Shown here in pieces: positions 26,256-64,000 of a DNA stretch of 64,000 bases (positions are counted from its first letter, which is position 1; each line of letters starts with the position of its first letter). The stretch is taken from positions 17,052,001 through 17,116,000 of the forward strand of contig OZ076409.1 of assembly GCA_964187785.1 (NCBI GenBank), written 5' to 3'. Below the pieces are notes generated by a model. That model was not told where the DNA came from. It was given only the letters and a program-made list of their open reading frames with translations, and searched no databases. The position numbers and the translations under genes were made by a program. The stretch comes from Amphiscolops sp. MND2022. Lineage: Eukaryota.

Positions 26256-26316
26256 CTAACTAGTGGTTTCAATACGCGCGGTCCCTTTAGAAAGAGTAAA
26301 GATTAAAAATACTTAT

Positions 26317-26625
26317 AACAAGCCGGGATGGCCCAAGTCGGCGCCATATCTAAGGCTCAAAAATAGCAAAAGGATTTCAAAGTGTCGAGTATTCTCTTCT
26401 ACAGTACCCGCATAAGGAAAAAATGGAAAAACATTTCCGAAATTTTTTGAAGTCTCCGGTAAGTCGCATAGTGCCGGAAAAATGTAAAAAGGAACATCCG
26501 TTTCTTTTGCCAAATAGAAAAATATTGAAGGGGGACCCTTTGGATACAATAAAAAAACTTGCGAGAAAAAGTCTCACAATGCCGAAATATCATGCACAAA
26601 AAAAATTGGTTAAGGGCGAGACTCG
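26317..26625. mobile_element. HINE-like element, family 1, truncated copy
   Basis: Starts AACAAGCCGGGATGGCCCAAGTCGGCGCCATATCTAAGGCTCAAAA, like 14003 and 14795. Confidence 0.7.
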
Positions 26626-35995: not shown

Positions 35996-36072
35996 CGGCT
36001 TCCGCATTGTGCCTGACGTGCACCCGCTATCTCAATCAGGGCTTTGCAATAAATAAGTGCAAGAATTTTTGG

Positions 36073-38590: not shown

Positions 38591-39474
38591 GGAAAATATT
38601 TTCATTTTCTGTCAAACTGTTTGTAAGAAAAGAAAAAACTTCTTCGAAATGCTTTGTTTACAATGGCTACCGAAAAACTACGAACAATGAGAAAAAGTTC
38701 AATTCAACTTACACTACATGATAGAACGATTGCACAGAAAATCTCTTAGAAACCAACACTTTACTAACAGAAAGCGCATCTCGCTGGACCTGGAATTATC
38801 TTATTTATCTTGGACATGGGAAGTGGAGAAAGGTTTGGCTTTCCTGTTGTAGTATCTCAGTTTAGATTGGAGAGGTAGCATTTAGTTTCAGACTTTGGAA
38901 AATGTTGGGGGAAGAATAAATCAAGCTTCTCCTTAAAGATTAGACCAGAGTCTTTTTGTTACGGCGGATTTAACTGACTACGAAGGAACAAAGTCTCTTA
39001 TCAAATATCAACCTTATCTCATTTCTATTTTTATTCCTTATTAGTATCAGTAGTGGCGAGTCCCGTCGTTACCAAGGGTATTTTTTGATTTATTTCACAG
39101 TCCCGCCCGGATACGACAGTTTGTTGTTTCTTCCCGATACATTAATTTCGAATCCTGAGAAATTAACAAAGTTGAACGAACCCCGGAAACCATGTTTTGA
39201 TTTGCTGATAACAAAAGTAATTTTCTCAAAGTATAGATGGCTGAACTTAAGACGTTTCATATTTTTTAAATTTTCGAAAAATCCGTTTAAAAGTTTTCTG
39301 TTTTTCTTTTGCCTAAGCGACAATGACTACACAGAACAGCAAACAAAAATTTTTGTCAGTTTGTATGTTGGTATTGAAATTAGAGTCTGACTCTATTCCT
39401 CCACCATCATAGGTTTCTCGAGCATCTGGACTTGCGAGTATTCTGTGTGTTTATTGAAACATCTCCACGTCTTC

Positions 39475-40178
39475 TTTGTCGGCGTGACTTAGCACAATCA
39501 TTTTCCAAAAATTGGAAGTTGTCAGCTCCGCCGATGCTTCTGCGGGAACCAACAATTTTTGATAGGGGGTGTACCATTGCATTGTTGGTTCCCGCAGAAG
39601 CATCGGCGGAGCTGACAACTTCCAATTTTTGGAAAATGATTGTGCTGTCAACTTTGTCGTTAAGAAGCTGATGTTGTTGCCTTTCCTCTACGAGCGCCTC
39701 AAGGGGCGCGCTCATAGTCATCCTGTAAGCAGTCCACCTGGTGCAATAACATTTCATTTCGATACTGAAGACCTTGATGTGACTTTTTTTGTCCCGCTGC
39801 CTACTCTCTCAACATTTCCACTAGACTCTTTTCAATCAACTTTTAGACCGGAACAAGGCATTTGACGCCAAAAAGTCCAGTTGAATATTTTGTCACAGTG
39901 TGCAGAGGGACACGAAAAGCTAGTTGAAGATCTGCAGCGTCGATATGGAAAGTTGTTGCAGCAATTGAACTGGTTAGAGAACGACTCTGATCAAGACATT
40001 GAGGAACGTTAAGACCAAATGCTGAAGCATCAGCTACCCAAACCCAATTTTGTTAGCTGTGATGCAAAGGGACACCACCATGCCCTCTATCAAAAGTTGT
40101 TGGTTCCCGCAGAAGCATCGGTGGAGCTGATAACTGCCCTATGTGGGAAATTCATTGTGCTGAGTCACGCCGACAAAG
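39475..40178. repeat. Inverted-repeat structure: perfect 66-bp hairpin (39491-39556 / 39581-39646) plus a diverged third copy (40070-40178)
   Basis: Arms read base by base as exact reverse complements with a 24-nt loop. 40070-40178 is a diverged reverse complement of 39475-39580. Confidence 0.9.
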
Positions 40179-41647
40179 TTTACTCAGAACCATCGATCGG
40201 CAGCGCGTAAGTCTCAGCGCCTTGAAATCGTGAAAGCTAGAATCACTGGTACTTCCTCGGGACAGATCGTATTAGCTACAATTGTAATTTCCAGCTTTGT
40301 ACAACTCTGGGTATGTATAGAACTACTCCTGCGCGTTCAATGCGCCGCTTTCATTTCATCTTTCTTCCTAGGAACATGCTGCTGTCTATATTGGAAAAAG
40401 AAATTGTTTTCAACTTCGTTTCCATTCTGTGTATTTGACACTTTTGGAACTCATGTAGATTCCAATTGCTTGTTGTTTCGTTTACAATGCGATTGTAGAG
40501 GAAATCGCATTTGTTTTTCTGAAAGATTTCGTTGTTCATTTTCTACTACTTTCAAATGGGAACTCTGAACCTGGACTGTAGCAAAAGTTTTTTCGACCGA
40601 CGTGAGAACAACAGTTAATTTATCTTTTTATCAGTATGAGAACTGGCAAAGCCGGTTGACAGTTTTTTTTTCATTTTACAACCCCGTTGATCCCCGAAGG
40701 TTTGTTGTTTCTTCAGATAACTTACTGTTAAATTCTTAGTAGGGTATAAATAGATGTAGCAAAGTTGGATAGCTCCAAAACATCTTTTATCTGTATTAGA
40801 TCATTCATCGAGTTGACGAAACCTGATTACAGTCTTTAACATTGACCTGTTGATATGTGAACTTTTTCGGGTTCCGACGTTGAAGCTATAGTTAGTCACT
40901 TGCACTTTGACGTTTCGTCCACTAGATAGTTCCCAACGTTTGCTCCGAAATCATCCGTTAATATTGTTCTTGCCTCTTGATTTCCTAGAATCGAGCCATT
41001 CGGGAAGATTTGATGCTTTTTGGTGTTTCTCTGTGATGACGCTACAAATAAATAGGCGTCCGTTTATCAGCACTGATGCTTCCGTCGTTTCTGTGGGGTG
41101 ATCTACTCTACTAGCGTGGTATATCCTATTCCTTTTCCACTCGCGTTCAACAAAATTACCGAGTACTTGAATTATTTGAATTTGTAGAGACCGAATCATC
41201 CACTTTTTCTAAATTTTATTGTGTGAGACGAAACAAAACGTTTCCTTCCCGAAACCCGGCAACCAAACTTTTTTTCATTCCACATCAGACGGCAGGTCTC
41301 GATTTGCAACTTATGAGATAAAAAGCAGGTATTCTTTCTGACTTCTGGTGGGAATACGAAACGTCGGCATACACTGCCGATTTGTTCATTTACGACATCG
41401 TGCATGGTGCCTGAAAACGACAAGTCTTCATTGATTGTTCCCCTTTGTTCGTGTTGAAGAGCACTGTGCCACGTTTCACTAGCTGCGGTTTCGTGTCACC
41501 GCAAGTACAGTTAGTTTCCTCGGTAAGAGATTGAAACGTGGTACACACGATTTGGTCAAAACCGTAACCATGTCTTTTGATTTGTTTTCTGCAATCTGTT
41601 TCCCTATTTTTACAAGTACAAAACAGATAAAACACTCGCAGTCTTCA

Positions 41648-41720
41648 GGTGTCATCTAGTTTGCTCTTTTCCACCGACCATCAGGTATCATCTAGTTTGC
41701 TCTTTTCCACCGACCATCAA
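41648..41720 (+). repeat. 36-bp tandem duplication
   Basis: GGT(G/A)TCATCTAGTTTGCTCTTTTCCACCGACCATCA occurs twice, just downstream of the Gypsy integrase end. Confidence 0.9.
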
Positions 41721-41779
41721 GTTTTCTTGAAAAAACACCTCGTCGCCGTCGAAACGGGTCATTGACATTTTAAAAAGGT

Positions 41780-44700
41780 AGGCACCAAAACGTTTTGGGA
41801 CTGAGCGTAGGCGACGGCTCGGCTCTCTTGGCAGCGACGTGGGCTTCATTTTTTGTGATTTGGTTTTCAAGCTTCTGTGTGTTTTCTCCACGTTTCGTTG
41901 GCTGGTCCTGTTTGAATAGTTTCCGCTGGTTCGGATATCGTTGACTTTCCAGGACATTCTGTTGAAGGTTTTCACCATGGCTGGTTCCGATTTGTTTTTG
42001 TTGTGTCTTTACAGGATCAGTTAAGTTTTGGATCTCTCGTTTTGCAGAATCTTTATCCTCCTCAATGGATGTTTCAGACTGCCTTTCTTCCGGTACTTTG
42101 TTTCACAGCAAATTTCTGCCCCGATTGGAAATGTCTTCTTGCTTTGGTAATGAACATTTGCTTCCTTCTTTGTTTCACCGGGTTGTACTCGAAAATTGAG
42201 ATTTTTTCTCAGAATGTGTATCGTCCCTTGTATGAAGAAGCCAACTTGTTTGTTTCACCCTTCTTCAAGGTCGAGAAAAATACGAGTTCCGTCGGGAAAA
42301 CTGGCCCATAGGCTCTGTAATCTGAGTAGGTCTTCTGTCGAGTTTGTTCAACTTCAATCTCTTATCCTGCAAGATGTTGTGATTTCTGCAGTTCTTTTAC
42401 CATATTGTGCACGTAATCATTTGATGTTGGCAATAAATTCGTATGACGAGTGTCGCACATACAAACAACCGGCAGCCACAAAAATGGTCAACTTACTAAA
42501 TCATTTAGACACTTCTTAGTAACTGTATAAATTGATGATCTGTAGATCATCATCAGTAGCTGTGTATAACAATTTCAATTATGTTTATGGCCGAGATACA
42601 TGGACAAAATCTCCTCGATGTTTCGATGTGTCCCTTCTATTACTGCATATTCTTTTCCGGATGAAAAGATGTAGCCTGTACTGTGTTTTATCGATGCCCA
42701 GAATATAGCACATTCCATTGAAAATATATGACATAAGAAGTTGTTCCTTTGTCAGAGTGAAGATTTACTGATAATCGAATTTGTAATCTACTCTTCAATT
42801 AGAACATGCGCCGCTGTTTTTGTTATGTGATTTGGCATGGCCACGGTTTCGTATCACTTTGTGAATTGGAATCCAATGAGTAGGATATAACTATTCTTCG
42901 GCAGCGTGCCCACGACATCCAATGAAATTTGCTGTAACGGGTGACTAGGTTTCCAAGTTTTCAAACTATGGCAATGTTTTTGAGGCGTCTCTATTCTTCT
43001 AAGACATTTATAACAGCCTTCGACCAGTCCTTTGACATCTCGAGTCTTTCCAGGCCAGAAACACCGTTCTTTAGCTCTTTGATATGTTTTGTCTACACCG
43101 AAGGTCACTCATGGAGCAACTGTAAAGTTTTTGATACCCGATTCTGATTCTCACCAGCAATGAGTTGAAGTAAGTACTTTCCTGTCTTCTCTAATGTCTT
43201 GACACAATATAATATGTCAACAATTATTTTCAATTTCAAAAACATTTTTGAATTCAACCCAGAATAGGAGTAATTTTTCGAGGCTCACGTCAAGTTACGC
43301 CAATCTGGCCCTTTTTTAACAACCCTATTCAGAACTTGTTTAAGGTTGCTGACCTGTTGCTGACTTATTTTAGTGTTTCACCGAACTGTTTTTTAATATT
43401 TTGCAAAATTGTCCATACATTCGCATCCTCAAGTTCTAGCGGCACTCCTGCTGATAACGCTACAATGAAAGGTACGAACATCTTCTCCTCCGGTAACGCT
43501 CTGGATAGACAACCGGCATGAGTGATTTTCTTGCCATCTTGGTATTGTTTGTCAAATTCAAACATACCTAACTTCTCTATACAGTTAGCGATCATGCTAC
43601 CAGGATCCTAGAAGCTGCATAGTCTTTCCAACGCTTTGTGATCCTGTTACAATCTGACTAGTTTTGCAAGTCAGTGCGATGACTCAAACAAATCCCTCCT
43701 GGTTTTGTTTGCGGATCGGCCCAATTCCCTTGAGTAAAGCGTCTAAAGCGTCGGTTGTCAGCGTGTATGTTCCGTGGTTATAGGGATACACTACAATGGG
43801 CAGTGATCAAAACTTCGCTCTAGGTCTAGTAGAGCAACTCCGAATCCTTTCCTCCACTGCGTTTTCTATTCGTTTTCTAAAAGGTTGTACAATGGCGATT
43901 ACCGGGATAAATTTCCGATAGAAACTACTTTGCCCCGAAACTGCTCTAACCTCCTTCAAGATTGTAGGTGATATTTTCCCAACAGTTTACATTTTTATCT
44001 CGATTGACTTTTACTCTACTTAAAGATATTACATGTCCAACGAAAAATATAGTTTTTTTAAAAAAAAAATGAACTTCAATGCAGTCACTTTCATTACCCT
44101 TTCAGCAAGGCATAGAAAAACGTTTCCCAACCAATGTAGGTGTTTTTGAAAAGTAGTCCCAGAAGCAATGATATCATTAATGTTTATAGAAGCAAGCTAC
44201 AACATACGAAGGCCCGCTGAAAACAGTTTTGGAAAGCTCAAGTTGGTTATGCTAGCCCGATGGGCATGGCTTTTGTTTAATAAAGGCCCATAGGATATGA
44301 AAAACTGCGAGGTTTTGACTTTTTTCTTTGAGAACTGGTCAAAAGTATCCAGTTGATTTGTCAATTCTGGAGAAAAACATCTTGCCTCTAGGCGAAACAG
44401 ACATCATTGATTCTCGGAAACAGCCACAATGTTTGCACATTTAGCTTGCTCAATCTTTTGTAGTCGACCGCCGACTGGTAAGAACCCTTTTGTAGTACTA
44501 GTACACTAGGGACTGTCGAATCTGAATGAGTTGGCGTTACAAGATCAGCTTGTGCTAGACCTTCTACAAATTGTTCGATAGCTCTCTTTTTGTCAAACCT
44601 CAAGTTTCCAAACGCTTCTGTGAATCGTTTGGTATCGGTTCAACTTGAATTGGTGTTCGAGTTGGTGTTCGAATTAGTTGGTAAAATGCAAATGGTTTGA

Positions 44701-47700
44701 ATTTCGTGAAGAAATTTGATGTATTTTTGACAAAGCAGTCTCTCATTGCCAAGTTGCTTTTTCGTCAAACGTTTGTCTTCTGGTTTCACATGTTTATAGA
44801 AGTCAAAACATTTGATAGTTGCAATTGTGTCGTTTTGTTTTAGAAACCGCTGTAACTCGCCCGTATCTAATGGATCCAGCTAGCTACCCGCGGTTTCTGA
44901 TAGACCATTAACTCAGCTTTGATTATATTGAGACGTCTGACACAGCAGGTTCCGTCGTTAACTTGATCAAAGCGTACTCAACCCATGATTCTTGTTGCTC
45001 CCGGGAACGAATTAACTGGAGTAAAAATTCCTTGGAAAAACAATACTTGTGAACCGCTGTTGGTTTTGCATGAAACTCCAACAATCGGTTGATTTTCTTA
45101 CAAAACATTTTCTTCTTTTTCACATACAGTAGAGAAAGTCGATTTCCTACAGAGAGTAGAATAAATCGTTTAAAGAAATCAATCTGGCTACCTAAAACTT
45201 GGGCTCCAATTCTCCCAAACGATCAATAGGTTCAACATTTCTTTTTATTGGCAATGAGCAATTTAGGAGAGGTTAAAATTTTTCCTTCGAAAAGTTCTAT
45301 CGTTTCCATGAAATCCAATGTCTGCAATTTTGACTACCTTATTAGAGAAATAATACTCCCATTATCAACAAAACAAAGGCAGAAGTTTTTGTTCCTTGTA
45401 TTCGAAATGTTGCACATAAAGCCTGTGTGTTTATCTGAGTTATCACCTGTTATTACTTTTTTGAATATCACTTTGTTAGACGAACGTCGACCCACGACCA
45501 CATTAGCTTCTGAACCTTTAGCCTCCCAACATATTATTTTAAAGAAGGGAACCTTTGCTGATAATGCCGAGAGCTAGCACAGCTGTATCAGTTTCTGTAT
45601 TGTCCCGCCTGGTGACCATTTTGATCCCATTAATAGCAGCCATCTTTATAAAACCTCACCTTTCTGTCAGTTGTTCAAACCTTCTCTCGTGAAGGGGATC
45701 TATGTTGCTTCGCAGATAACCTTCCAGGCGTAGGGGGTCTGTAGTTGCTTCATCTCTGGTTCTCAAGACCTCTTCATGGTCAACTTCTAATTGTTTTTAA
45801 CTTTCTTTCGGGCTGCTTCTTAACTGGTTTCCCTCATGGAATTCCTTGCGGTTGGTATTTCGCGATTCCCACGAGAGTGGCAGTGCTTTTGCTAACTGAA
45901 TAATTGACTCAATTTGTTTTCGTTTTTGTCGAGTTGTAGCATTGCTACTCTGGGCTCTTTCTCCTTATCCCCAATTCTTTTGAGATCTTCCCTACGTAAT
46001 GCCGTTTCCAGAAGCCTCTTGGTGTTCATTTCTGCAAACCCATTCATTTTTCTTGTCCCCCAATGTACATGGCTACTTCTAATTCCCTCTAGCCATCTAG
46101 CCAGCCGCGCACTCCTAAAGGGTCTTTAATCTTTTAGAACTCCCCCTGGAATGCTTTTATTTGCTAAGCACTGTAAATCTCCCCAAAAATCTGTTAACTT
46201 TTTCTCGGTTGTCGTACTCTTCCTGCCAGCCGAGCCCGAAACACCACTGGTTTCTCAATTTAAAGCATTCGGAAAGCCTGTTTTGACTTTTCACACTTCT
46301 TCTTTTGCGTTCATCCGTATGCATTCAGTAAAAATTTATCGCTGACATTTCAAGAGGTAGCACAAAGTTGTGCGGCCCGCTGAAAATCAGTTTCGGAATG
46401 CTCAAGTTGTTTATTCGAGCCCGATGGGCATGGTTTTTGTTTAAAAAAGGCCCATAGGAATTGAAAAACTGCGAGGTTCTGACTTTTTTCTTTGAGAACT
46501 GGTCAAAAGTATCCAGATGATAAGTCAATTCTGGAGAAAAACATCTTGCTTCTAGGCGAAACAAAGACATCATTGATTCTCGGTAAGGGCCACAATGTTT
46601 GCACATTTAGCTTGCTCAATCTTTTGTAGTCGACCGCCAACTGGTAAGAACCCTTTTGTAGTACTAGTACACTAGGGACTGTCGAATCGGAATGAGTTGG
46701 TGTTACAAGATCAGCTTGTGCTAGACCTTCTACAAATTGTTCGATAGCTCTCTTTTTGTCAAACCTCAAGTTTCCAAACGCTTCTGTGAATCGTTTGGTA
46801 TCGATTCAACTTGAATTGGTGTTCGAGTTGGTGTTCGAATTAGTTGGTAAAATGCAAATGGTTTGAATTTCGTGAAGAAATTTGATGTATTTTTGACAAA
46901 GCAGTCTCTCATTGCCAAGTTGCTTTTTCGTCAAACGTTTGTCTTCTGGTTTCACTTGTTTATAGAAGTCAAAACATTTGATAGTTGCAATTGTGTCGTT
47001 TTGTTTTAGAAGCCGCTGTAACTCGCCCGTATCTAATGGATCCAGCTAGCTACCCGCGGTTTCTGATAGGGCATTAACTCAGCTTTGATTATATTGAGAC
47101 GTCTGACACAGCAGGTTCCGTCGTTAACTTGATCAAAGCGTACTCAACCCATGATTCTTGTTGCTCCCGGGAACGAATTAACTGGAGTAAAAATTCCTTG
47201 GAAAAACAATACTTGTGAACCGCTGTTGGTTTCGCATGAAACTCCAACAATTGGTTGATTTTCCTACAAAACAGTTTCTTCTTTTTCACATACAGTAGAG
47301 AAAGTCGATTTCCTACAGAGAGTAGAATAAATCGTTTAAAGAAATCAATCTGGCTACCTAAAACTTGGGCTCCAATTCTCCCAAACGATCAATAGGTTCA
47401 ACATTTCTTTTTATTGGCAATGAGCAATTTAGGAAAGGATAAAATTTTTCCTTCGAAAAATTCTATCGTTTCCATGAACTCCAATGTCTGCAAATTTGAC
47501 TACCTTATTAGAGAAATAATACTCCCATTATCAACAAAACAAAGGCAGTAGTTTTTGTTTCTTGTATTCGAAATGTTGCACATAAAGCCTGTGTGTTTAT
47601 CTGTGTTATCACCTGTTATTACTTTTTTGAATATCACTTTGTTAGACGAACGTCGACCCACAACCACATTAGCTTCTGAAACTTTAGCCTCCCAACATAT

Positions 47701-50700
47701 TATTTTAAAGAAGGGAACCTTTGCTGATAATGCCGAGAGCTAGCACAGCTGTATCAGTTTCGGTATTGTCCCGCCTGGTGACCATCTTGATCCCATTAAT
47801 AGCAGCCATCTTTATAAAACCTCACCTTTCGGTCAGTTGTTCAAACCTTCTCCCGTGAAGGGGATCTATGTTGCTTCGCAGATAACCTTCCAGGCGTAGG
47901 GGGTCTGTAGTTGCTTCATCTCTGGTTCTCAAGACCTCTTCATGGTCAACTTCTAATTGTTTTTAACTTTCTCTCGGGCTGCTTCTTAACTGGTTTCCCT
48001 CATGGAATTCCTTGCGGTTAGTATTTCGCGATTCCCACGAGAGTGGCAGTGCTTTTGCTAACTGAATAATTGACTCAATTTGTTTTCGTTTTTGTCGAGT
48101 TGTTCATTGCTACTCTGGGCTCTTTCTCCTTATCCCCAATTCTTGTGAGATCTTCCCTACGTAATGCCGTTTCCAGAAGCCTCTTGGTGTTCATTTCTGC
48201 AAACCCATTCATTTTTCTCGTCCCCCAACGTACATGGCTACTTCTAATTCCCTCTAGCCATCTAGCCAGCCGCGCACTCCTAAAGGGTCTTTAATCTTTT
48301 AGAACTCCCCCTGGTATGCTTTTATTTGCTAAGCACTGTAAATCTCCCCAAAAATCTGGTAACTTTTTCTCGGTTGTCGTACTCTTCTTGCCAGCTGAGC
48401 CCGAAACACCACTGGTTTCTCAATTTAAAGCATTCGGAAAGCCTGTTTTGACTTTTCACACTTCTTTTTTGCGTTCATCCGTATGCATTCAGTAAAAAGT
48501 TATCGCTGACATTTCAAGAGGTAGCACAAAGTTGTGCGGCCCGCTGAAAACTAGTTTCGGAATGCTCAAGTTGTTTATTCGAGCCCGATGGGCATGGTTT
48601 TTGTTTTAAAAAGGCCCATAGGAATTGAAAAACTGCGAGGTTCTGACTTTTTTCTTTGAGAACTGGTCAAAAGTATCCAGATGATAAGTCAATTCTGGAG
48701 AAAAACATCTTGCTTCTAGGCGAAACAAAGACATCATTGATTCTCGGTAAGGGCCACAATGTTTGCACATTTAGCTTGCTCAATCTTTTGTAGTCGACCG
48801 CCAACTGGTAAGAACCCTTTTGTAGTACTAGTACACTAGGGACTGTCGAATCGGAATGAGTTGGTGTTACAAGATCAGCTTGTGCTAGACCTTCTACAAA
48901 TTGTTCGATAGCTCTCTTTTTGTCAAACCTCAAGTTTCCAAACGCTTCTGTGAATCGTTTGGTATCGGTTCAACTTGAATTGGTGTTCGAGTTGGTGTTC
49001 GAATTAGTTGGTAAAATGCAAATGGTTTGAATTTCGTGAAGAAATTTGATGTATTTTTGACAAAGCAGTCTCTCATTGCCAAGTTGCTTTTTCGTCAAAC
49101 GTTTGTCTTCTGGTTTCACTTGTTTATAGAAGTCAAAACATTTGATAGTTGCAATTGTGTCGTTTTGTTTTAGAAGCCGCTGTAACTCGCCCGTATCTAA
49201 TGGATCCAGCTAGCTACCCGCGGTTTCTGATAGGGCATTAACTCAGCTTTGATTATATTGAGACGTCTGACACAGCAGGTTCCGTCGTTAACTTGATCAA
49301 AGCGTACTCAACCCATGATTCTTGTTGCTCCCGGGAACGAATTAACTGGAGTAAAATTTCCTTGGAAAAACAATACTTGTGAACCGCTGTTGGTTTTGCA
49401 TGAAACTCCAACAATCGGTTGATTTTCCTACAAAACAGTTTCTTCTTTTTCACATACAGTAGAGAAAGTCGATTTCCTACAGAGAGTAGAATAAATCGTT
49501 TAAAGAAATCAATCTGGCTACCTAAAACTTGGGCTCCAATTCTCCCAAACGATCAATAGGTTCAACATTTCTTTTTATTGGCAATGAGCAATTTAGGAAA
49601 GGATAAAATTTTTCCTTCGAAAAATTCTATCGTTTCCATGAATTCCAATGTCTGCAAATTTGACTACCTTATTAGAGAAATAATACTCCCATTATCAACA
49701 AAACAAAGGCAGTAGTTTTTGTTTCTTGTATTCGAAATGTTGCACATAAAGCCTGTGTGTTTATCTGTGTTATCACCTGTTATTACTTTTTTGAATATCA
49801 CTTTGTTAGACGAACGTCGACCCACAACCACATTAGCTTCTGAAACTTTAGCCTCCCAACATATTATTTTAAAGAAGGGAACCTTTGCTGATAATGCCGA
49901 GAGCTAGCACAGCTGTATCAGTTTCGGTATTGTCCCGCCTGGTGACCATCTTGATCCCATTAATAGCAGCCATCTTTATAAAACCTCACCTTTCGGTCAG
50001 TTGTTCAAACCTTCTCTCGTGAAGCGGATCTATGTTGCTTCGCAGATAACCTTCCAGGCGTAGGGGGTCTGTAGTTGCTTCATCTCTGGTTCTCAAGACC
50101 TCTTCATGGTCAACTTCTAATTGTTTTTAACTTTCTCTCGGGCTGCTTCTTAACTGGTTTCCCTCATGGAATTCCTTGCGGTTAGTATTTCGCGATTCCC
50201 ACGAGAGTGGCAGTGCTTTTGCTAACTGAATAACTGACTCAATTTGTTTTCGTTTTTGTCGAGTTGTTCATTGCTACTCTGGGCTCTTTCTCCTTATCCC
50301 CAATTCTTGTGAGATCTTCCCTACGTAATGCCGTTTCCAGAAGCCTCTTGGTGTTCATTTCTGCAAACCCATTCATTTTTCTCGTCCCCCAACGTACATG
50401 GCTACTTCTAATTCCCTCTAGCCATCTAGCCAGCCGCGCACTCCTAAAGGGTCTTTAATCTTTTAGAACTCCCCCTGGTATGCTTTTATTTGCTAAGCAC
50501 TGTAAATCTCCCCAAAAATCTGGTAACTTTTTCTCGGTTGTCGTACTCTTCTTGCCAGCTGAGCCCGAAACACCACTGGTTTCTCAATTTAAAGCATTCG
50601 GAAAGCCTGTTTTGACTTTTCACACTTCTTTTTTGCGTTCATCCGTATGCATTCAGTAAAAAGTTATCGCTGACATTTCAAGAGGTAGCACAAAGTTGTG

Positions 50701-53700
50701 CGGCCCGCTGAAAACTAGTTTCGGAATGCTCAAGTTGTTTATTCGAGCCCAATGGGCATGGTTTTTGTTTAAAAAAGGCCCATAGGAATTGAAAAACTGC
50801 GAGGTTCTGACTTTTTACTTTGAAAACTGGTCAAAAGTATCCAGATGATAAATCAATTCTGGAGAATAACATCTTGCTTCTAGGCGAAACAAAGACATCA
50901 TTGATTCTCGGTAAGGGCCACAATGTTTGCACATTTAGCTTGCTCAATCTTTTGTAGTCGACCGCCAACTGGTAAGAACCCTTTTGTAGTACTAGTACAC
51001 TAGGGACTGTCGAATCGGAATGAGTTGTTGTTACAAGATCAGCTTGTGCTAGACCTTCTACAAATTGTTCGATAGCTCTCTTTTTGTCAAACCTCAAGTT
51101 TCCAAACGCTTCTGTGAATCGTTTGGTATCGATTCAACTTGAATTGGTGTTCGAGTTGGTGTTCGAATTAGTTGGTAAAATGCAAATGGTTTGAATTTCG
51201 TGAAGAAATTTGATGTATTTTTGACAAAGCAGTCTCTCATTGCCAAGTTGCTTTTTCGTCAAACGTTTGTCTTCTGGTTTCACTTGTTTATAGAAGTCAA
51301 AACATTTGATAGTTGCAATTGTGTCGTTTTGTTTTAGAAGCCGCTGTAACTCGCCCGTATCTAATGGATCCAGCTAGCTACCCGCGGTTTCTGATAGGGC
51401 ATTAACTCAGCTTTGATTATATTGAGACGTCTGACACAGCAGGTTCCGTCGTTAACTTGATCAAAGCGTACTCAACCCATGATTCTTGTTGCTCCCGAGA
51501 ACGAATTAACTGGAGTAAAAATTCCTTGGAAAAACAATACTTGTGAACCGCTGTTGGTTTTGCATGAAACTCCAACAATCGGTTGATTTTCCTACAAAAC
51601 ATTTTCTTCTTTTTCACATACAGTAGAGAAAGTCGATTTCCTACAGAGTAGAATAAATCGTTTAAAGAAATCAATCTGGCTACCTAAAACTTGGGCTCCA
51701 ATTCTCCCAAACGATCAATAGGTTCAACATTTCTTTTTATTGGCAATGAGCAATTTGAAGAGGTTAAAATTTTTCCTTCGAAAAGTTCTATCGTTTCCAT
51801 GAAATCCAATGTCTGCAATTTTGACTACCTTATTAGAGAAATAATACTCCCATTATCAACAAAACAAAGGCAGTAGTTTTTGTTCCTTGTATTCGAAATG
51901 TTGCACATAAAGCCTGTGTGTTTATCTGAGTTATCACCTGTTATTACTTTTTTGAATATCACTTTGTTAGACGAACGTCGACCCACGACCACATTAGCTT
52001 CTGAAACTTTAGCCTCCCAACATATTATTTTAAAGAAGGGAACCTTTGCTGATAATGCCGAGAGCTAGCACAGCTGTATCAGTTTCGGTATTGTCCCGCC
52101 TGGTGACCATCTTGATCCCAGTAATAGCAGCCATCTTTATAAAACCTCACCTTTCGGTCAGTTGTTCAAACCTTCTCTCGTGAAGGGGATCTATGTTGCT
52201 TTGCAGACAACCTTCCAGGCGTAGGGGGTCTGTAGTTGCTGCATCTCTGGTTCTCAAGACCTCTTCATGGTCAACTTCTAATTGTTTTTAACTTTCTCTC
52301 GGGCTGATTCTTAACTGGTTTCCCTCATGGAATTCCTTGCGGTTGGTATTTCGCGATTCCCACGAGAGTGGCAGTGCTTTTGGTAACTGAATAATTGACT
52401 CAATTTGTTTTTGTTTTTGTCGAGTTGTAGCATTGCTACTCTGGGCTCTTTCTCCTTATCCCCAGTTCTTGTGAGATCTTCCCTACGTAATGCCGTTTCC
52501 AGAAGCCTCTTGGTGTTCATTTCTGCAAACCCATTTATTTTTCTCGTCCCCCAACGTACATGGCTACTTCTAATTCCCTCTAGCCATCTAGCCAGCCGCG
52601 CACACCTAAAGGGTCTTTAATCTTTTAGAACTCCCCCTGGTATGCTTTTATTTGCTAAGCACTGTAAATCTCCCCAAAAATCTGTAAACTTTTTCTCGGT
52701 TGTCGTACTCTTCTTGCCAGCCGAGCCCGAAACACCACTGGTTTCTCAATTTAAAGCATTCGGAAAGCCTGTTTTGACTTTTCACACTTCTTCTTTTGCG
52801 TTCATCCGTAAGCATTCAGTAAAAATTTATCGCTGACATTTCAAGACGTAGCACAAAGTTGTGCGGCCCGCTGAAAACCAGTTTCGGAATGCTCAAGTTG
52901 TTTATTCGAACCCGATGGGCATGGTTTTTGTTTAAAAAAGGCCCATAGGAATTGAAAAACTGCGAGGTTCTGACTTTTTTCTTTGAGAACTGGTCAAAAG
53001 TATCCAGATGATAAGTCAATTCTGGAGAAAAACATCTTGCTTCTAGGCGAAACAAAGACATCATTGATTCTCGGTAAGGGCCACAATGTTTGCACATTTA
53101 GCTTGCTCAATCTTTTGTAGTCGACCGCCAACTGGTAAGAACCCTTTTGTAGTACTAGTACACTAGGTACTGTCGAATCTGAATGAGTTGGTGTTACAAG
53201 ATCAGCTTGTGCTAGACCTTCTACAAATTGTTCGATAGCTCTCTTTTTGTCAAACCTCAAGTTTCCAAACGCTTCTGTGAATCGTTTGGTATCGGTTCAA
53301 CTTGAATTGGTGTTCGAGTTGGTGTTCGAATTAGTTGGTAAAATGCAAATGGTTTGAATTTCGTGAAGAAATTTGATGTATTTTTGACAAAGCAGTCTCT
53401 CATTGCCAATATGCTTTTTCGTCAAACGTTTGTCGTCTGATTTCACATGTTTATAGAAGTCAAAACATTTGATAGTTGCAAATGTGTCGTTTTGTTTTAG
53501 AAGCCGCTGTAATTCTCCCGTATCTAATGGATCCAGCTAGCTACCCGCGGTTTCTGATAGGCGATTAACTCAGCTTTGATTATATTGAGACGTCTGACAC
53601 AGCAGGTTCCGTCGTTAACTTGATCAAAGCGTACTCAATCCTTAATTCTTGTTGCTCCCGGGAACGAATTAACTGGAGTAAAAATTCCTTGGAAAAACAA

Positions 53701-56700
53701 TACTTGTGAACCGCTGTTGGTTTTGCATGAAGCTCCAACAATCGGTTGATTTTCCTACAAAACATTTTCTTCTTTTTCACATACAGTAGAGAAAGTCGAT
53801 TTCCTACAGAGAGTAGAATAAATTGTTTAAAGAAATCAATCTGGCTACCTAAAACTTGGGCTCCAATTCTCCCAAACGATCAATAGGTTCAACATTTCTT
53901 TTTATTGGCAATGAGCAATTTAAGAGTGGTCAAAATTTTTCCTTCGAAAAGTTCTATCGTTTCCATGAAATCCAATGTCTGCAATTTCGACTATCTTATT
54001 AGAGAAATAATACTCCCATTATCAACAAAACAAAGGCAGTAGTTTTTGTTTCTTGTATTCGAAATGTTGCACATAAAGCCTGTGTGTTTATCTGAGTTAT
54101 CACCTGTTATTACTTTTTTGAATATCACTTTGTTAGACGAACGTCGACCCACGACCACATTAGCTTCTGAAACTTTAGCCTCCCAACATATTATTTTAAA
54201 GAAGGGAACCTTTGCTGATAATGCCGAGAGCTAGCACAGCTGTATCAGTTTCTGTATTGTCCCGCCTGGTGACCATCTTGATCCCATTAATAGCAGCCAT
54301 CTTTATAAAACCTCACCTTTCGGTCAGTTGTTCAAACCTTCTCTCGTGAAGGGGATCTATGTTGCTTCGCAGATAACCTTCCAGGCGTAGGGGGTCTGTA
54401 GTTGCTTCATCTCTGGTTCTCAAGACCTCTTCATGGTCAACTTCTAATTGTTTTTAACTATCTCTCGGGCTGCTTCTTGACTGGTTTCCCTCATGGAATT
54501 CCTTGCGGTTGGTATTTCGCGATTCCCACGAGAGTGGCAGTGCTTTTGCTAACTGAATAATTGACTCAATTTGTTTTCGTTTTTGTCGAGTTGTAGCATT
54601 GCTACTCTGGGCTCTTTCTCCTTATCCCCAATTCTTGTGAGATCTTCCCTACGTAATGCCGTTTCCAGAAGCCTCTTGGTGTTCATTTCTGCAAACCCAT
54701 TCATTTTTCTCGTCCCACAACGTACATGGCTACTTCTAATTCCCTCTAGCTATCTAGCCAGCCGCGCACTCCCAAAGGGTCTTTAATCTTTTAGAACTCC
54801 CCCTGGTATGCTTTTATTTGCTAAGCACTGTAAATCTCCCCAAAAATCTGTTAACTTTTTCTCGGTTGTCGTACTCTTCTTGCCAGCCGAGCCCGAAACA
54901 CCACTGGTTTCTCAATTTAAAGCATTCGGAAAGCCTGTTTTGACTTTTCACACTTCTTCTTTTGCGTTCATCCGTAAGCATTCAGTAAAAATTTATCGCT
55001 GACATTTCAAGAGGTAGCACAAAGTTGTGCGGCCCGCTGAAAACCAGTTTCGGAATGCTCAAGTTGTTTATTCGAGCCCGATGGGCATGGTTTTTGTTTA
55101 AAAAAGGCCCATAAGAATTGAAAAACTGCGAGGTTCTGACTTTTTTTTGAGAACTGGTCAAAAGTATCCAGATGATAAGTCAATTCTGGAGAAAAACATC
55201 TTGCTTCTAGGCGAAACAAAGACATCATTGATTCTCGGTAAGGGCCACAATGTTTTCACATTTAGCTTGCTCAATCTTTTGTAGTCGACCGCCAACTGGT
55301 AAGAACCCTTTTGTAGTACTAGTACACTAGGGACTGTCGAAACTGAATGAGTTGGTGTTACAAGATCAGCTTGTGCTAGACCTTCTACAATATGTTCGAT
55401 AGCTCTCTTTTTGTCAAACCTCAAGTTTCCGAACGCTTCTGTGAATCGTTTGGTATCGGTTCAACTTGAATTGGTGTTCGAGTTGGTGTTCGAATTAGTT
55501 GGTAAAATGCAAATGGTTTGATTTTCGTGAAGAAATTTGATGTATTTTTGACAAAGCAGTCTCTCATTGCCAAGTTGCTTTTTCGTCAAACGTTTGTCTT
55601 CTGGTTTCACATGTTTATAGAAGTCAAAACATTTGTTAGTTGCAATTGTGTCGTTTTGTTTTAGAAACCGCTGTAACTCGCCCGTATCTAATGGATCCAG
55701 CTAGCTACCCGCGGTTTCTGATAGACCATTAACTCAGCTTTGATTATATTGAGACGTCTGACACAGCAGGTTCCGTCGTTAACTTGATCAAAGCGTACTC
55801 AACCCATGATTCTTGTTGCTCCCGGGAACGAATTAACTGGAGTAAAAATTCCTTGGAAAAACAATACTTGTGAACCGCTGTTGGTTTTGCATGAAACTCC
55901 AACAATCGGTTGATTTTCTTACAAAACATTTTCTTCTTTTTCACATACAGTAGAGAAAGTCGATTTCCTACAGAGAGTAGAATAAATCGTTTAAAGAAAT
56001 CAATCTGGCTACCTAAAACTTGGGCTCCAATTCTCCCAAACGATCAATAGGTTCAACATTTCTTTTTATTGGCAATGAGCAATTTAGGAGAGGTTAAAAT
56101 TTTTCCTTCGAAAAGTTCTATCGTTTCCATGAAATCCAATGTCTGCAATTTTGACTACCTTATTAGAGAAATAATACTCCCATTATCAACAAAACAAAGG
56201 CAGTAGTTTTTGTTCCTTGTATTCGAAATGTTGCACATAAAGCCTGTGTGTTTATCTGAGTTATCACCTGTTATTACTTTTTTGAATATCACTTTGTTAG
56301 ACGAACGTCGACCCACGACCACATTAGCTTCTGAACCTTTAGCCTCCCAACATATTATTTTAAAGAAGGGAACCTTTGCTGATAATGCCGAGAGCTAGCA
56401 CAGCTGCATCAGTTTCTGTATTGTCCCGCCTGGTGACAATTTTGATCCCATTAATAGCAGCCATCTTTATAAAACCTCACCTTTCGGTCAGTTGTTCAAA
56501 CCTTCTCTCGTGAAGGGGATCTATGTTGCTTCGCAGATAACCTTCCAGGCGTAGGGGGTCTGTAGTTGCTTCATCTCTGGTTCTCAAGACCTCTTCATGG
56601 TCAACTTCTAATTGTTTTTAACTTTCTTTCGGGCTGCTTCTTAACTGGTTTCCCTCATGGAATTCCTTGCGGTTGGTATTTCGCGATTCCTACGAGAGTG

Positions 56701-59700
56701 GCAGTGCTTTTGCTAACTGAATAATTGACTCATTTTGTTTTCGTTTTTGTCGAGTTGTAGCATTGCTACTCTGGGCTCTTTCTCCTTATCCCCAATTCTT
56801 GTGAGATCTTCCCTACGTAATGCCGTTTCCAGAAGCCTCTTGGTGTTCATTTCTGCAAACCCATTCATTTTTCTCGTCCCCCAACGTACATGGCTACTTC
56901 TAATTCCCTCTAGCCATCTAGCCAGCCTCGCACTCCTAAAGGGTCTTTAATCTTTTAGAACTCCCCCTGGTATGCTTTTATTTGCTAAGCACTGTAAATC
57001 TCCCCAAAAATCTGTTAACTTTTTCTCGGTTGTCGTACTCTTCTTGCCAGCCGAGCCCGAAACACCACTGGTTTCTCAATTTAAAGCAATCGGAAAGCCT
57101 GTTTTGACTTTTCACACTTCTTCTTTTGCGTTCATCCGTATGCATTCAGTAAAAATTTATCGCTGACATTTCAAGAGGTAGCACAAAGTTGTGCGGCCCG
57201 CTGAAAACCAGTTTCGGAATGCTCAAGTTGTTTATTCGAGCCCGATGGGCATGGTTTTTGTTTAAAAAAGGCCCATAGGAATTGAAAAACTGCGAGGTTC
57301 TGTCTTTTTTCTTTGAGAACTGGTCAAAAGTATCCAGATGATAAGTCAATTCAGGAGAAAAACATCTTGCTTCTAGGCGAAACAAAGACATCATTGATTC
57401 TCGGTAAGGGCCACAATGTTTGCACATTTAGCTTGCTCAATCTTTTGTAGTCGACCGCCGACTGGTCAGAACCCTTTTGTAGTACTAGTACACTAGGGAC
57501 TGTCGAATCTGAATGAGTTGGTGTTACAAGATCAGCTTGTGCTAGACCTTCTACAAATTGTTCGATAGCTCTCTTTTTGTCAAACCTCAAGTTTCCAAAC
57601 GCTTCTGTGAATCGTTTGGTATCGGGTCAACTTGAATTGGTGTTCGAGTTGGTGTTCGAATTAGTTGGTAAAATGCAAATGGTTTGAATTTTGTGAAGAA
57701 ATTTGATGTATTTTTGACAAAGCAGTCTCTCATTGCCAAGTTGCTTTTTCGTCAAATGTTTGTCTTCTGGTTTCACATGTTTATAGAAACATTTGATAGT
57801 TGCAATTGTGTCTTTTTTGTTTTAGAAGCCGCTGTAACTCGCCCGTATCTAATGGATCCAGCATAGCTACCCGCGGTTTCTGATAGACCATTAACTCAGC
57901 TTTGATTATATTGAGACGTCTGACACAGCTGGTTCCGTCGTTAACTTGATCAAAGCGTACTCAACCCATGATTCTTGTTGCTCCCGGGAACGAATTAACT
58001 GGAGTAAAAATTCTTTGGAGAAACAATACTTTTTAACCGCTGTTGGTTTTGCATGAAACTCCAACAATCGGTTGATTTTCTTACAAAACATTTTCTTCTT
58101 TTTCACATACAGTAGAGAAAGTCGATTTCCTACAGAGAGTAGAATAAATCGTTTAAAGAAATCAATCTGGCTACCTAAAACTTGGGCTCCAATTCTCCCA
58201 AACGATCAATAGGTTCAACATTTCTTTTTATTGGCAATGAGCAATTTAGGAGAGGTTAAAATTTTTCCTTCGAAAAGTTCTATCGTTTCCATGAAATCCA
58301 ATGTCTGCAATTTTGACTACCTTATTAGAGAAATAATACTCCCGTTATCAACAAAACAAAGGCAGTAGTTTTTGTTCCTTGTATTCGAAATGTTGCACAT
58401 AAAGCCTGTGTGTTTATCTGAGTTATCACCTGTTATTACTTTTTTGAATATCACTTTGTTAGACGAACGTCGACCCACGACCACATTAGCTTCTGAACCT
58501 TTAGCCTCCCAACATATTATTTTAAAGAAGGGAACCTTTGCTGATAATGCCGAGAGCTAGCACAGCTGTATCAGTTTCTGTATTGTCCCGCCTGGTGACC
58601 ATTTTGATCCCATTAATAGCAGCCATCTTTATAAAACCTCACCTTTCGGTCAGTTGTTCAAACCTTCTCTCGTGAAGGGGATCTATGTTGCTTCGCAGAT
58701 AACCTTCCAGGCGTAGGGGGTCTGTAGTTGCTTCATCTCTGGTTCTCAAGACCTCTTCATGGTCAACTTCTAATTGTTTTTAACTTTCTTTCGGGCTGCT
58801 TCTTAACTGGTTTCCCTCATGGAATTCCTTGCGGTTGGTATTTCGCGATTCCCACGAGAGTGGCAGTGCTTTTGCTAACTGAATAATTGACTCAATTTGT
58901 TTTCGTTTTTGTCGAGTTGTAGCATTGCTACTCTGGGCTCTTTCTCCTTATCCCCAATTCTTGTGAGATCTTCCCTACGTAATGCTGTTTCCAGAAGCCT
59001 CTTGGTGTTCATTTCTGCAAACCCATTCATTTTTCTCGTCCCCCAACGTACATGGCTACTTCTAATTCCCTCTAGCCATCTAGCCAGCCTCGCACTCCTA
59101 AAGGGTCTTTAATCTTTTAGAACTCCCCCTGGTATGCTTTTATTTGCTAAGCACTGTAAATCTCCCCAAAAATCTGTTAACTTTTTCTCGGTTGTCGTAC
59201 TCTTCTTGCCAGCCGAGCCCGAAACACCACTGGTTTCTCAATTTAAAGCAATCGGAAAGCCTGTTTTGACTTTTCACACTTCTTCTTTTGCGTTCATCCG
59301 TATGCATTCAGTAAAAATTTATCGCTGACATTTCAAGAGGTAGCACAAAGTTGTGCGGCCCGCTGAAAACCAGTTTCGGAATGCTCAAGTTGTTTATTCG
59401 AGCCCGATGGGCATGGTTTTTGTTTAAAAAAGGCCCATAGGAATTGAAAAACTGCGAGGTTCTGACTTTTTTCTTTGAGAACTGGTCAAAAGTATCCAGA
59501 TGATAAGTCAATTCTGGAGAAAAACTTCTTGCTTCTAGGCGAAACAAAGACATCATTGATTCTCGGTAAGGGCCACAATGTTTGCACGATTAGCTTGCTC
59601 AATCTTTTGTAGTCGACCGCCGACTGGTCAGAACCCTTTTGTAGTACTAGTACACTAGGGACTGTCGAATCTGAATGAGTTGGTGTTACAAGATCAGCTT

Positions 59701-62700
59701 GTGCTAGACCTTCTACAAATTGTTCGATAGCTCTCTTTTTGTCAAACCTCAAGTTTCCAAACGCTTCTGTGAATCGTTTGGTATCGGTTCAACTTGAATT
59801 GGTGTTCGAGTTGGTGTTCGAATTAGTTGGTAAAATGCAAATGGTTTGAATTTCGTGAAGAAATTTGATGTATTTTTGACAAAGCAGTCTCTCATTGCCA
59901 AGTTGCTTTTTCGTCAAATGTTTGTCTTCTGGTTTCACATGTTTATAGAAACAATTGATAGTTGCAATTGTGTCTTTTTTGTTTTAGAAGCTGCTGTAAC
60001 TCGCCCGTATCTAATGGATCCAGCATAGCTACCCGCGGTTTCTGATAGACCATTAACTCAGCTTTGATTATATTGAGACGTCTGACACAGCAGGTTCCGT
60101 CGTTAACTTGATCAAAGCGTACTCAACCCATGATTCTTGTTGCTCCCGGGAACGAATTAACTGGAGTAAAAATTCCTTGGAAAAACAATACTTGTGAACC
60201 GCTGTTGGTTTTGCATGAAACTCCAACAATCGGTTGATTTTCTTACAAAACATTTTCTTCTTTTTCACATACAGTAGAGAAAGTCGATTTCCTACAGAGA
60301 GTAGAATAAATCGTTTAAAGAAATCAATCTGGCTACCTAAAACTTGGGCTCCAATTCTCCCAAACGATCAATAGGTTCAACATTTCTTTTTATTGGCAAT
60401 GAGCAATTTAGGAGAGGTTAAAATTTTTCCTTCGAAAAGTTCTATCGTTTCCATGAAATCCAATGTCTGCAATTTTGACTACCTTATTAGAGAAATAATA
60501 CTCCCGTTATCAACAAAACAAAGGCAGTAGTTTTTGTTCCTTGTATTCGAAATGTTGCACATAAAGCCTGTGTGTTTATCTGAGTTATCACCTGTTATTA
60601 CTTTTTTGAATATCACTTTGTTAGACGAACGTCGACCCACGACCACATTAGCTTCTGAACCTTTAGCCTCCCAACATATTATTTTAAAGAAGGGAACCTT
60701 TGCTGATAATGCCGAGAGCTAGCACAGCTGTATCAGTTTCTGTATTGTCCCGCCTGGTGACCATTTTGATCCCATTAATAGCAGCCATCTTTATAAAACC
60801 TCACCTTTCGGTCAGTTGTTCAAACCTTCTCTCGTGAAGGGGATCTATGTTGCTTCGCAGATAACCTTCCAGGCGTAGGGGGTCTGTAGTTGCTTCATCT
60901 CTGGTTCTCAAGACCTCTTCATGGTCAACTTCTAATTGTTTTTAACTTTCTTTCGGGCTGCTTCTTAACTGGTTTCCCTCATGGAATTCCTTGCGGTTGG
61001 TATTTCGCGATTCCCACGAGAGTGGCAGTGCTTTTGCTAACTGAATAATTGACTCAATTTGTTTTCGTTTTTGTCGAGTTGTAGCATTGCTACTCTGGGC
61101 TCTTTCTCCTTATCCCCAATTCTTGTGAGATCTTCCCTACGTAATGCTGTTTCCAGAAGCCTCTTGGTGTTCATTTCTGCAAACCCATTCATTTTTCTCG
61201 TCCCCCAACGTACATGGCTACTTCTAATTCCCTCTAGCCATCTAGCCAGCCTCGCACTCCTAAAGGGTCTTTAATCTTTTAGAACTCCCCCTGGTATGCT
61301 TTTATTTGCTAAGCACTGTAAATCTCCCCAAAAATCTGTTAACTTTTTCTCGGTTGTCGTACTCTTCTTGCCAGCCGAGCCCGAAACACCACTGGTTTCT
61401 CAATTTAAAGCAATCGGAAAGCCTGTTTTGACTTTTCACACTTCTTCTTTTGCGTTCATCCGTATGCATTCAGTAAAAATTTATCGCTGACATTTCAAGA
61501 GGTAGCACAAAGTTGTGCGGCCCGCTGAAAACCAGTTTCGGAATGCTCAAGTTGTTTATTCGAGCCCGATGGGCATGGTTTTCGTTTAAAAAAGGCCCAT
61601 AGGAATTGAAAAACTGCGAGGTTCTGACTTTTTTCTTTGAGAACTGGTCAAAAGTATCCAGATGATAGGTCAATTCTGGAGAAAAACATCTTGCTTCTAG
61701 GCGAAACAAAGACATCATTGATTCTAGGTAAGGGCCACAATGTTTGCACGATTAGCTTGCTCAATCTTTTGTAGTCGACCGCCGACTGGTCAGAACCCTT
61801 TTGTAGTACTAGTACACTAGGGACTATCGAATCTGAATGAGTTGGTGTTACAAGATCAGCTTGTGCTAGACCTTCTACAAATTGTTCGATAGCTCTCTTT
61901 TTGTCAAACCTCAAGTTTCCAAACGCTTCTGTGAATCGTTTGGTATCGGTTCAACTTGAATTGGTGTTCGAGTTGGTGTTCGAATTAGTTGGTAAAATGC
62001 AAATGGTTTGAATTTCGTGAAGAAATTTGATGTATTTTTGACAAAGCAGTCTCTCATTGCCAAGTTGCTTTTTCGTCAAATGTTTGTCTTCTGGTTTCAC
62101 ATGTTTATAGAAACATTTGATAGTTGCAATTGTGTCTTTTTTGTTTTAGAAGACGCTGTAACTCGCCCGTATCTAATGGATCCAGCATAGCTACCCGCGG
62201 TTTCTGATAGACCATTAACTCAGCTTTGATTATATTGAGACGTCTGACACAGCAGGTTCCGTCGTTAACTTGATCAGAGCGTGCTCAACCCATGATTTTT
62301 GTTGCTCCCGGGAACGAATTATCTGGAGTAAAAATTCCTTGGAAAGACAATACTTGTGACCGCTGTTGGTTTTGCATGAAACTCCAACAATCAGTTGATT
62401 TTCCCACAAAACATTTTCTTCTTTTTCACATACAGTAGAGAAAGTCGATTTCCTACAGAGAGTAGAATAAATCGTTTAAAGAAATCAATCTGGCCACCTA
62501 TAACTTGGGCTCCAATTCTCCCAAATGATCAATAGGTTAAACATTTCTTTTTATTGGCAATGAGCAATTTAGGAGCGGTTAAACTTTTTCCTTTGAATAG
62601 TTCTATCGTTCCCGTGAAATCCAATGTCTGCAATTTTGACTACCTTATTAGAGAAATATTACTCCCATTATCAACAAAACAAAGGCAGTAGTTTTTCTTC

Positions 62701-64000
62701 CTTGTATCCGAAATGTTGCACACAAAGCCTGTGTGTTTATCTGAGTTATCACCTGTTATTTCCTTTTTGAATATCACTTTGTTAGACGAACATCGAGCCA
62801 CGACCACATTAGCTTCTGAAATTTTAGCCTCCTAACATATTATTTTAAAGAAGGGAACCTTTGCTGATAATGCCGAGAGCTCGCACAGCTGTATCAGTTT
62901 CTACATTGTCCCGCCTGGTGACATTCCTGATCCCATTAATAGCAGCCATCTTTATAAAACCTCACCTTTTGATCAGTTGTTCATACCTTCTTTCGTGAAA
63001 GGGATCTATGTTGCTTCGCAGATAACCTTCCAGGCGTAGGGGGTCTGTAGTTGCTTCATCTCTGGTTCTCAAGACCTCTTCCTGGTCAACTTCTAGTTCT
63101 TTTTTACTTTCTCTCGAGCTGCTTCCTAACTGGTTTCCCTCATGGAATTCCTTGCGGTTGGTATTTCGCGATTCCCACGAGAGTGGCAGTGCTTTTGCTA
63201 ACTGAATAATTGACTCAATTTGTTTTCGTTTTTGTCGAGTTGTAGCATTGCTACTCTGGGCTCTTTCTCCTTATCCCCAATTCTTGTGAGATCTTCCCTA
63301 CGTAATGCTGTTTCCAGAAGCCTCTTGGTGTTCACTTCTGCAAACCCATTCATTTTTCTCGTCCCCCAACGTACATGGCTATTTCTAGTTCCCTCTAGCC
63401 AGCCGCGCACTCCAAAAGGGTCTTTAATCTTTAAGAACTCCCGGTGGCATGCTTTTATTTGCTAAGCACTGTAAATCTCCCCAAAAATCTGTTAACTTTT
63501 TCTCGGTTGTCGTACTCTTCTTGCCAGCCGAGCCCGAAACACCACTGGTTTCTCGATTTAAAGCATTCGGAAAGCCTGTTTTGTCTTTTCACACTTCCTC
63601 GTTTGCGTTCATCCGTTAGCATTCAGTAAAAATTTATCGCTGACATTTCAAGAAGTAGCACAAAGTTTTCAGGCCTATCAAACTACATCCACTTCGTTTT
63701 CTTCGAGATTCACTGTTCCACCCCAGTTATGGATATTAGTTAACAGTTCAGAACGGGTTATGTAGCTTTCAATGTCATTGTAGCGAGTGAATAAGTCGAG
63801 TAATAACATTTTGTATTTACCCGTAGCTATCTTAGTATCAACACGATGGTTTAGTTGTTCTTGTTGTGTTACTTTCTTTTTTGGGCTTTCAACTAGCTCG
63901 ACGAGAATGACTCACTAACAAGAGCTAGTTGATTTTTATGGAATCAATGAAACCCAGTGATATTTCTTTCGAGAAAGAAGTTCAATAAACTTTTATTGTT
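41780..64000 (-). mobile_element. Decayed Ty3/Gypsy LTR retrotransposon internal region (gag-PR-RT-RNaseH-integrase order)
   Basis: RT motifs VDYKRL, WPLPRINDV and FSRIDLSSGY; RNase H motifs YTLTTDAL and DHKAL (~43.6-43.8 kb); integrase motifs GVDKTYQR..ERCFWPG...C..C, ISLDVVG and HSDKG (42.7-43.1 kb); C-terminal RRLRSVPKRF. LTRs not identified. Confidence 0.9.
44211..63675 (-). repeat. Tandem array of nine ~2,163-bp units derived from the Gypsy gag-protease-5'RT segment
   Basis: Unit start GGCCCGCTGAAAA at 44211, 46374, 48538, 50702, 52865, 55031, 57195, 59357 and 61519; the array exits at ~63672. The same small ORFs recur with this period in the ORF track. Confidence 0.98.

Follow-up and report, generated by a model that had tools for sequence, protein, structure and literature searches.

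Satellite repeats can arise from LTR, gag, or pol segments of retroelements, and any part of an element can serve as their source in the cases covered by two reviews (PMC12628747, PMC9659126). Among the closest described systems are the internal-to-internal tandems of LTR elements in Drosophila (McGurk and Barbash, PMC5932611), in which, as at the locus studied here, the junction unites two internal sites and expansion is attributed to unequal exchange; as that paper portrays them, these tandems are common but low in copy number and known from short-read junctions only, whereas the present array has nine units, with its native ends and the order of its variants visible. Human megasatellites built from transposon pieces include 3.5-kb MaLR "LTR arrays" of 4 to 25 units, a 1.7-kb HERVE repeat present in 5 units, and Mer20 (Warburton et al., PMC2588610). 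In the account given there, they share kilobase-sized units, internal retroelement sequence, and unequal crossing over with our array, and the Mer20 array starts with its full-length parent; MaLR units, however, contain LTR pieces in both orientations and occur on many chromosomes, while the unit described here has no LTR and one known locus. Ty3/Gypsy gag coding sequence is found, as here, in the monomers of the rye E3900 and wheat/Aegilops Cereba repeats, which are summarized as high-copy, chromosome-scale repeats with rearranged or short monomers (PMC3648361, PMC9659126), in contrast to the contiguous gag-protease-RT segment that still lies within its parent at our locus. Maize CRM1TR and CRM4TR likewise form local tandem arrays of mosaic monomers from a Gypsy element but, unlike the present case, are described as LTR/UTR derived, centromeric, and attributed mainly to gene conversion (PMC3648361).

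The window analyzed here is a 64,000-nucleotide stretch of contig OZ076409.1 of Amphiscolops sp. MND2022 (assembly GCA_964187785.1). The original prediction, made from its letters alone, presented the array as a macrosatellite and as satellite birth caught in situ. Its novelty was overstated, since the literature, as far as the sources cited here go, already contains gag- or pol-derived satellites as well as arrays still joined to their parent (PMC3648361, PMC12628747, PMC9659126, PMC2588610, PMC5932611), and both labels go beyond what nine copies at one known locus can carry. A literature search, for most hits at the level of listings, yielded no LTR-free gag-protease-RT array with both native ends, which is weak evidence of absence. 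The locus is a clean example of a known route of repeat origin and suggests neither a new mechanism nor a function.

A nine-unit array on a degraded Ty3/Gypsy copy

Self-blastn of the window gave eight off-diagonals across positions 44211 to 63675 (94.4 to 97.9% identity), and this stretch consists of nine head-to-tail units of 2,157 to 2,166 bp each (2.16 kb x 9, about 19.5 kb), which belong to a degraded Ty3/Gypsy copy in minus-strand orientation (Table 1). Pairs of units differ by 11 to 100 substitutions. A 22-nt junction occurs in eight exact copies within the window and in none of 100 shuffles. The self-comparison, the unit borders, and these junctions bear out the nine units of about 2,163 bp that had been predicted. 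The array was missed by Tandem Repeats Finder because the period limit was 500. Each unit covers Gag residues ~52 to 330 of 330 (about 85% of gag), the protease, and the RT as far as a point some ten residues short of YxDD; the predicted protease and 5' RT content is correct, whereas the "late gag" of the prediction is in fact nearly all of gag. The array is thus a tandem repeat whose head-to-tail units are homologous to part of a transposable element, and its multikilobase unit and length above 10 kb are those of a macrosatellite. Judged by its sequence, it would behave like a young macrosatellite and is a candidate member of that class.

Table 1. Features of the array and of its parent element (positions in the window)
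Feature	Positions	Strand	Remarks
C-terminal pol tail	41793..42181	-	weak alignment, low similarity
Rest of pol, single copy	42182..44210	-	YxDD region of RT, RNase H, integrase
Native RT-side GGCC, array left end	44211..44214	+	
Unit 1	44211..46373	-	Gag ~52-330 with zinc knuckles, protease, RT to about residue 484 of P0002
Unit 1, outer 215 bp			~8% from every other unit
Unit 2	46374..48537	-	starts at first of eight gag/RT junctions
Unit 3	48538..50701	-	11 substitutions vs unit 2
Unit 4	50702..52864	-	columns 216-760: 0.2-0.4% from units 2 and 3; remainder 2.3%
Unit 5	52865..55030	-	separate lineage within ~2% layer
Unit 6	55031..57194	-	columns 761-2160: 0.4-0.9% from units 1, 7, 8
Unit 7	57195..59356	-	mosaic: columns 216-760 unit 9-like, beyond unit 6-like
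Unit 8	59357..61518	-	14 substitutions vs unit 7
Unit 9	61519..63675	-	outer ~1,400 bp 4.7-5.6% from other units; inner ~760 bp groups with units 7 and 8
Native gag-side GGCC, array right end	63672..63675	+	
Gag start, single copy	63676..63830	-	residues 1-51 of P0166, 31/51 identical, best match in window
Upstream of gag start	63831..64000	-	presumed leader, by position; any 5' LTR mostly past window end

Both flanks continue the parent element

Integrase_H2C2 was found directly in the integrase region (E = 9e-8), and a query with this region retrieved one protein among 1,100 candidates, P0001 (E = 3e-69), whose cluster also contains P0002, a protein in which protease, RVT_1, RNase H, and integrase domains follow each other as in Gypsy elements. 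A frameshift-aware alignment to P0002 starts with residue 60 at 45369, extends as far as the integrase tail with 487 identities over 1,143 aligned residues, and passes 44211 without rearrangement into RT-RNase H-integrase. The gag region likewise retrieved one protein, among 1,193 candidates: P0166, with 330 residues and CCHC knuckles, aligned from 63830 to 62846 (194 of 329 residues identical). Its residues 1 to 51 lie outside the array, the alignment of unit 8 begins at residue 53, i.e., at the junction, and the P0166 N terminus scores 138 at the right flank versus at most 38 anywhere else in the window. Because P0002 crosses 44211 collinearly and P0166 residues 1 to 51 adjoin the right end, both flanks are the native continuation of one Ty3/Gypsy element. 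The two alignments place gag, protease, RT, RNase H, and integrase in this order on the minus strand, as in Ty3/Gypsy elements, and the further Gypsy-type domains RVT_1, RT_RNaseH, rve, Integrase_p58_C, and CCHC gag were recognized via homologues. The anticipated collinearity to the left of the array and the merely presumed gag to its right are both confirmed, and these flanks support an origin in place, inside one Gypsy copy.

None of 150 listed Gypsy-like representative proteins matched the gag flank; P0166 alone did. For the 170 bp upstream of gag, a very short query, the best LTR-like partner within the window was a 20-bp match that is not credible (E = 0.029), and in the search for an env reading frame after integrase, as in errantivirus-like Gypsy elements, no Pfam family was matched in three frames of 38500 to 42200, itself degraded sequence. 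Among metagenome contigs, 29 pattern matches to loci related to P0002 were obtained, none of which was confirmed.

The two native ends have only GGCC in common, as predicted, and a match of at least four bases turns up in 2.2% of random breakpoint pairs drawn from this region. One correction is needed: in the four bases that precede GGCC, the outer right copy differs from the junctions at three of four positions. Because P0166 has the residues of the junction version (Pro-His), it is the outer right copy that likely changed later. Three substitutions and one extra base crowd together no more than about 12 bp from the GGCC at the outer gag side (63668 to 63680). The first join was likely of the microhomology type, as far as these short sequences tell, and the predicted microhomology-initiated duplication is plausible. 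A point against it is that GGCC comprises only 4 bp, with the above frequency by chance, and that 5 to 8% of later divergence blurs the original join. The junction motif gave 0 matches in metagenome contigs, an uninformative result given that the host may be absent there.

Decay of the element preceded copying

Ten stop positions in Gag are found in any unit; five are present in all nine units, two in eight units including unit 9, two in units 1 to 8 only, and one in unit 6 only. In the 5' RT, four stops and two frameshifts are common to all nine units (such alignments locate frameshifts only approximately, and least exactly in the protease region, where the match is poor). Over the 1,386 columns to which a frame was assigned, variable sites are spread over codon positions 1, 2, and 3 as 34, 36, and 47 (chi-square p = 0.28); for sites private to the outer ends, the counts are 13, 16, and 19 (p = 0.57). 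Because most stops and frameshifts are common to all units and the differences show no codon-position bias, copying began after the death of the element, which had accumulated many stops and frameshifts before any copying; the Gag and RT lesions agree with the earlier claim that amplification followed pseudogenization. In the single-copy pol flank (42182 to 44210), the 665 aligned codons are interrupted by 11 stops and 13 frameshifts. On a crude clock, its stop density corresponds to about 0.11 (0.05 to 0.19) changes per site since death, versus a rough 2.4 to 4% per lineage since the first duplication.

Copying while the element was active is rejected, the outer lineages sharing most stops and frameshifts and showing no third-position excess. 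A coding function of the array is likewise rejected; its longest stop-free frame has 115 codons. Rfam gave no match at gathering score in 38000 to 64000, and a tRNA scan found nothing; the array shows no sign of function that could be read from its sequence.

Divergence layers and mosaic units

Divergence among the units falls into three non-overlapping age layers of 4.7% (3.7 to 6.0), 1.9 to 2.3% (1.3 to 3.2), and 0.4 to 0.65% (0.16 to 1.1). At the left edge of the array, 215 bp of unit 1 are 7.9 to 10.7% from all other units, and at its right edge 1,400 bp of unit 9 are 4.7 to 5.6% from them, so that the two ends are unequal in divergence (8.0% versus 4.7%, Fisher p = 0.05); between columns 216 and 760, both units are ordinary members. 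The layer at about 2% comprises four lineages (units 2/3, unit 4, unit 5, and units 1/6/7/8), which are 1.7 to 2.4% apart, share hardly any derived sites, and form an unresolved star with an open fork. The recent layer, with copies 0.4 to 0.8% apart, includes units 2/3, 7/8, and 6/8, at 0.4 to 0.65%. The 189 two-state variable columns include 46 A/T changes, and transitions are about as frequent as transversions (95 to 94).

Different parts of the unit give different trees. Columns 216 to 760 group units 2, 3, and 4 and units 7, 8, and 9, whereas columns 761 to 2160 group units 2 and 3 and units 1, 6, 7, and 8, with unit 9 outside and unit 1 as sister to units 6 to 8 (0.8 to 1.1%). Three of four AU tests reject the clade of the other segment (p = 0.013, 0.0007, and 0.0004; the fourth, p = 0.49). 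These p-values, like those of the breakpoint tests below, are optimistic in that the segments were picked post hoc from the data. Incompatible pairs make up 108 of 666 pairs of informative sites. Permutation tests place breakpoints inside units for 1/2 at about 212 (p = 0.0005), 8/9 at about 758 (p = 0.0025), and 6/7 at about 836 (p = 0.0085), with four of six pairwise tests significant; units 3/4 (p = 0.16) and 4/5 (p = 0.66) gave no significant breakpoint. Units 7 and 8 can be read as hybrids of the right part of unit 6 and the left part of unit 9, which would be the expected product of out-of-register exchange between neighbors. The combination of diverged ends and mosaic inner units is the pattern of concerted evolution, and the diverged ends match the Rsp satellite, for which variant repeats are reported to be commoner at array ends (PMC5411766). 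The age layers, the breakpoints within units, and the conflicting trees together support unequal exchange as the expanding process.

Probable stepwise origin of the array

A 2.16-kb internal segment of a dead Ty3/Gypsy element is repeated nine times in place, probably through a break-repair join between two GGCC sites followed by stepwise unequal exchange and conversion as neutral DNA. After the decay described above, the RT-side GGCC would have been joined once to the gag-side GGCC, giving a dimer whose two copies drifted 5 to 8% apart; of this first dimer, nothing would remain but 215 bp at the outer side of unit 1 and ~1,400 bp at that of unit 9. Misaligned exchange between the copies would then have turned the hybrid unit with its junction into four or more lineages separated by about 2%, and later single-unit slips would have given units 2/3 and 6/7/8, with breakpoints inside units. 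That unit 1 is closer to units 6 to 8 than to its neighbor may reflect a longer-offset event, which could be an exchange of two differently expanded haplotypes, a conversion tract, or an array that first grew and then contracted. A single haplotype does not distinguish crossing over from gene conversion; population long reads on the array locus could separate unequal exchange, conversion, and circle reinsertion.

For the middle layer, there is a modest chance of a single burst, in which recombination of the two initial copies excised a junction-bearing circle that was amplified by rolling circle and reinserted, only the later slips being due to unequal exchange. The four nearly equidistant lineages, with their open fork, would fit such a burst; however, quick successive exchanges produce an equal star, and a burst alone cannot yield three age layers, breakpoints within units, and conflicting trees. 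Rolling-circle reinsertion, which had been offered beside unequal exchange, is excluded in the form of a single event as the sole origin by the age layers and the mosaic units and retains its chance for the middle layer only.

The first join could also have come from LTR-LTR unequal exchange: in the resulting full tandem dimer, a deletion that spanned the shared LTR would have brought the RT-side and gag-side GGCC together, with later expansion unchanged. The junction and the final anatomy would be exactly identical, and the Drosophila internal-to-internal tandems are read in that study as consistent with deletions across head-to-tail junctions (PMC5932611). We nevertheless hold this route to be rather unlikely: it requires two events, the LTRs of an element decayed by about 0.11 changes per site would be poor exchange partners, and no LTR pair was identified with the query of only 170 bp upstream of gag.

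A more far-reaching reading, in which the array is actively expanding and variable in copy number, its full history is readable at the locus, and its unit seeds other loci, would make it a satellite at the step from local array to family. We regard this as unlikely; the history that forms part of it runs from element death, first join, and burst to recent slips and an exchange between two differently expanded haplotypes.

It is very unlikely that the array is partly a product of assembly, either through an inflated copy number or through two haplotypes (units 1 to 5 and 6 to 9) joined in tandem. The sister position of unit 1 to units 6 to 8 in columns 761 to 2160 is what alleles would show, but real exchange between homologues yields an equal outcome. 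Every unit has private substitutions (3 to 59), which upholds the earlier argument from unit-specific variants, and the differences are mostly substitutions in a nested pattern (226 variable columns, 13 indel events). In register, identity between units is unbroken for at most 1,390 bp (units 7/8), and for 569 bp at offset 5; expansion of the copy number by the assembler is unlikely, because long reads would resolve such lengths. Maintenance of the array by selection, as a source of silencing small RNA against Gypsy elements or as a heterochromatin seed, is most improbable, for repeated recent expansion is the only point in its favor, against which stand the short stop-free frames, the negative Rfam result, and several further tandem duplications in the window that make a special cause unneeded. 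Duplication during retrotransposition, by template switching of reverse transcriptase (a process that short microhomology joins would fit) or by recombination of two family members active independently of each other, could account for outer ends that differ by 5 to 8% but is scarcely credible in view of the stops and frameshifts that the outer lineages share and of their differences without third-position excess.

Most transposon-derived satellites have lost their starting point, whereas the present one has kept both native ends, its junction, and three dated layers. It thus illustrates the start of an array without a pre-existing repeat, the lag of a dimer before expansion, and the escape of array ends from homogenization.

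Other repeats in the window

Transposon debris makes up the window, which also has further local tandem duplications and pieces of other retroelements. A Pfam scan covered the 20 ORFs of at least 120 codons and two regions. Positions 22304 to 27236 contain the direct repeat pairs 22304-22586/25964-26252 (93%) and 24840-25097/25591-25846 (97%), a zinc-knuckle ORF at 23918 to 24463 (E = 0.004), and a Copia-type RT fragment at 26790 to 27236 (RVT_2, E = 8e-5); this region is likely a degraded Copia-like element with nested insertions, as its repeats and domains suggest. A homologue search with the zinc-knuckle ORF retrieved none of 320 candidates. The RVT_1 fragment at 36057 to 36482 (E = 4e-6) had no match to 166 Gypsy-related proteins at E = 1e-5 and likely represents another retroelement class. 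A weak match to the Anoctamin dimerization domain at 18740 to 19255 (E = 4e-4) is under the curated cutoff and probably due to chance.

Dispersed repeats of 100 to 1,000 bp, 72 to 94% alike and in both orientations, are jumbled between 28466 and 38596. Two short arrays of 16-bp units, 85% alike and inverted relative to each other, lie at 11447 to 11892, and a sequence of about 96 bp occurs three times, twice inverted, at 39474 to 39647 and 40083 to 40178 in a local hairpin-like arrangement. Tandem copying is not peculiar to the array locus, because the window has other local tandem duplications: a 243-bp unit in four copies (977 to 1951), a dimer of about 573 bp (85%; 2054 to 3286), a 173-bp unit in two copies (8072 to 8457), an array of ~185-bp units (9861 to 11244), and, just past the pol tail, a 36-bp unit in two copies (41645 to 41719).
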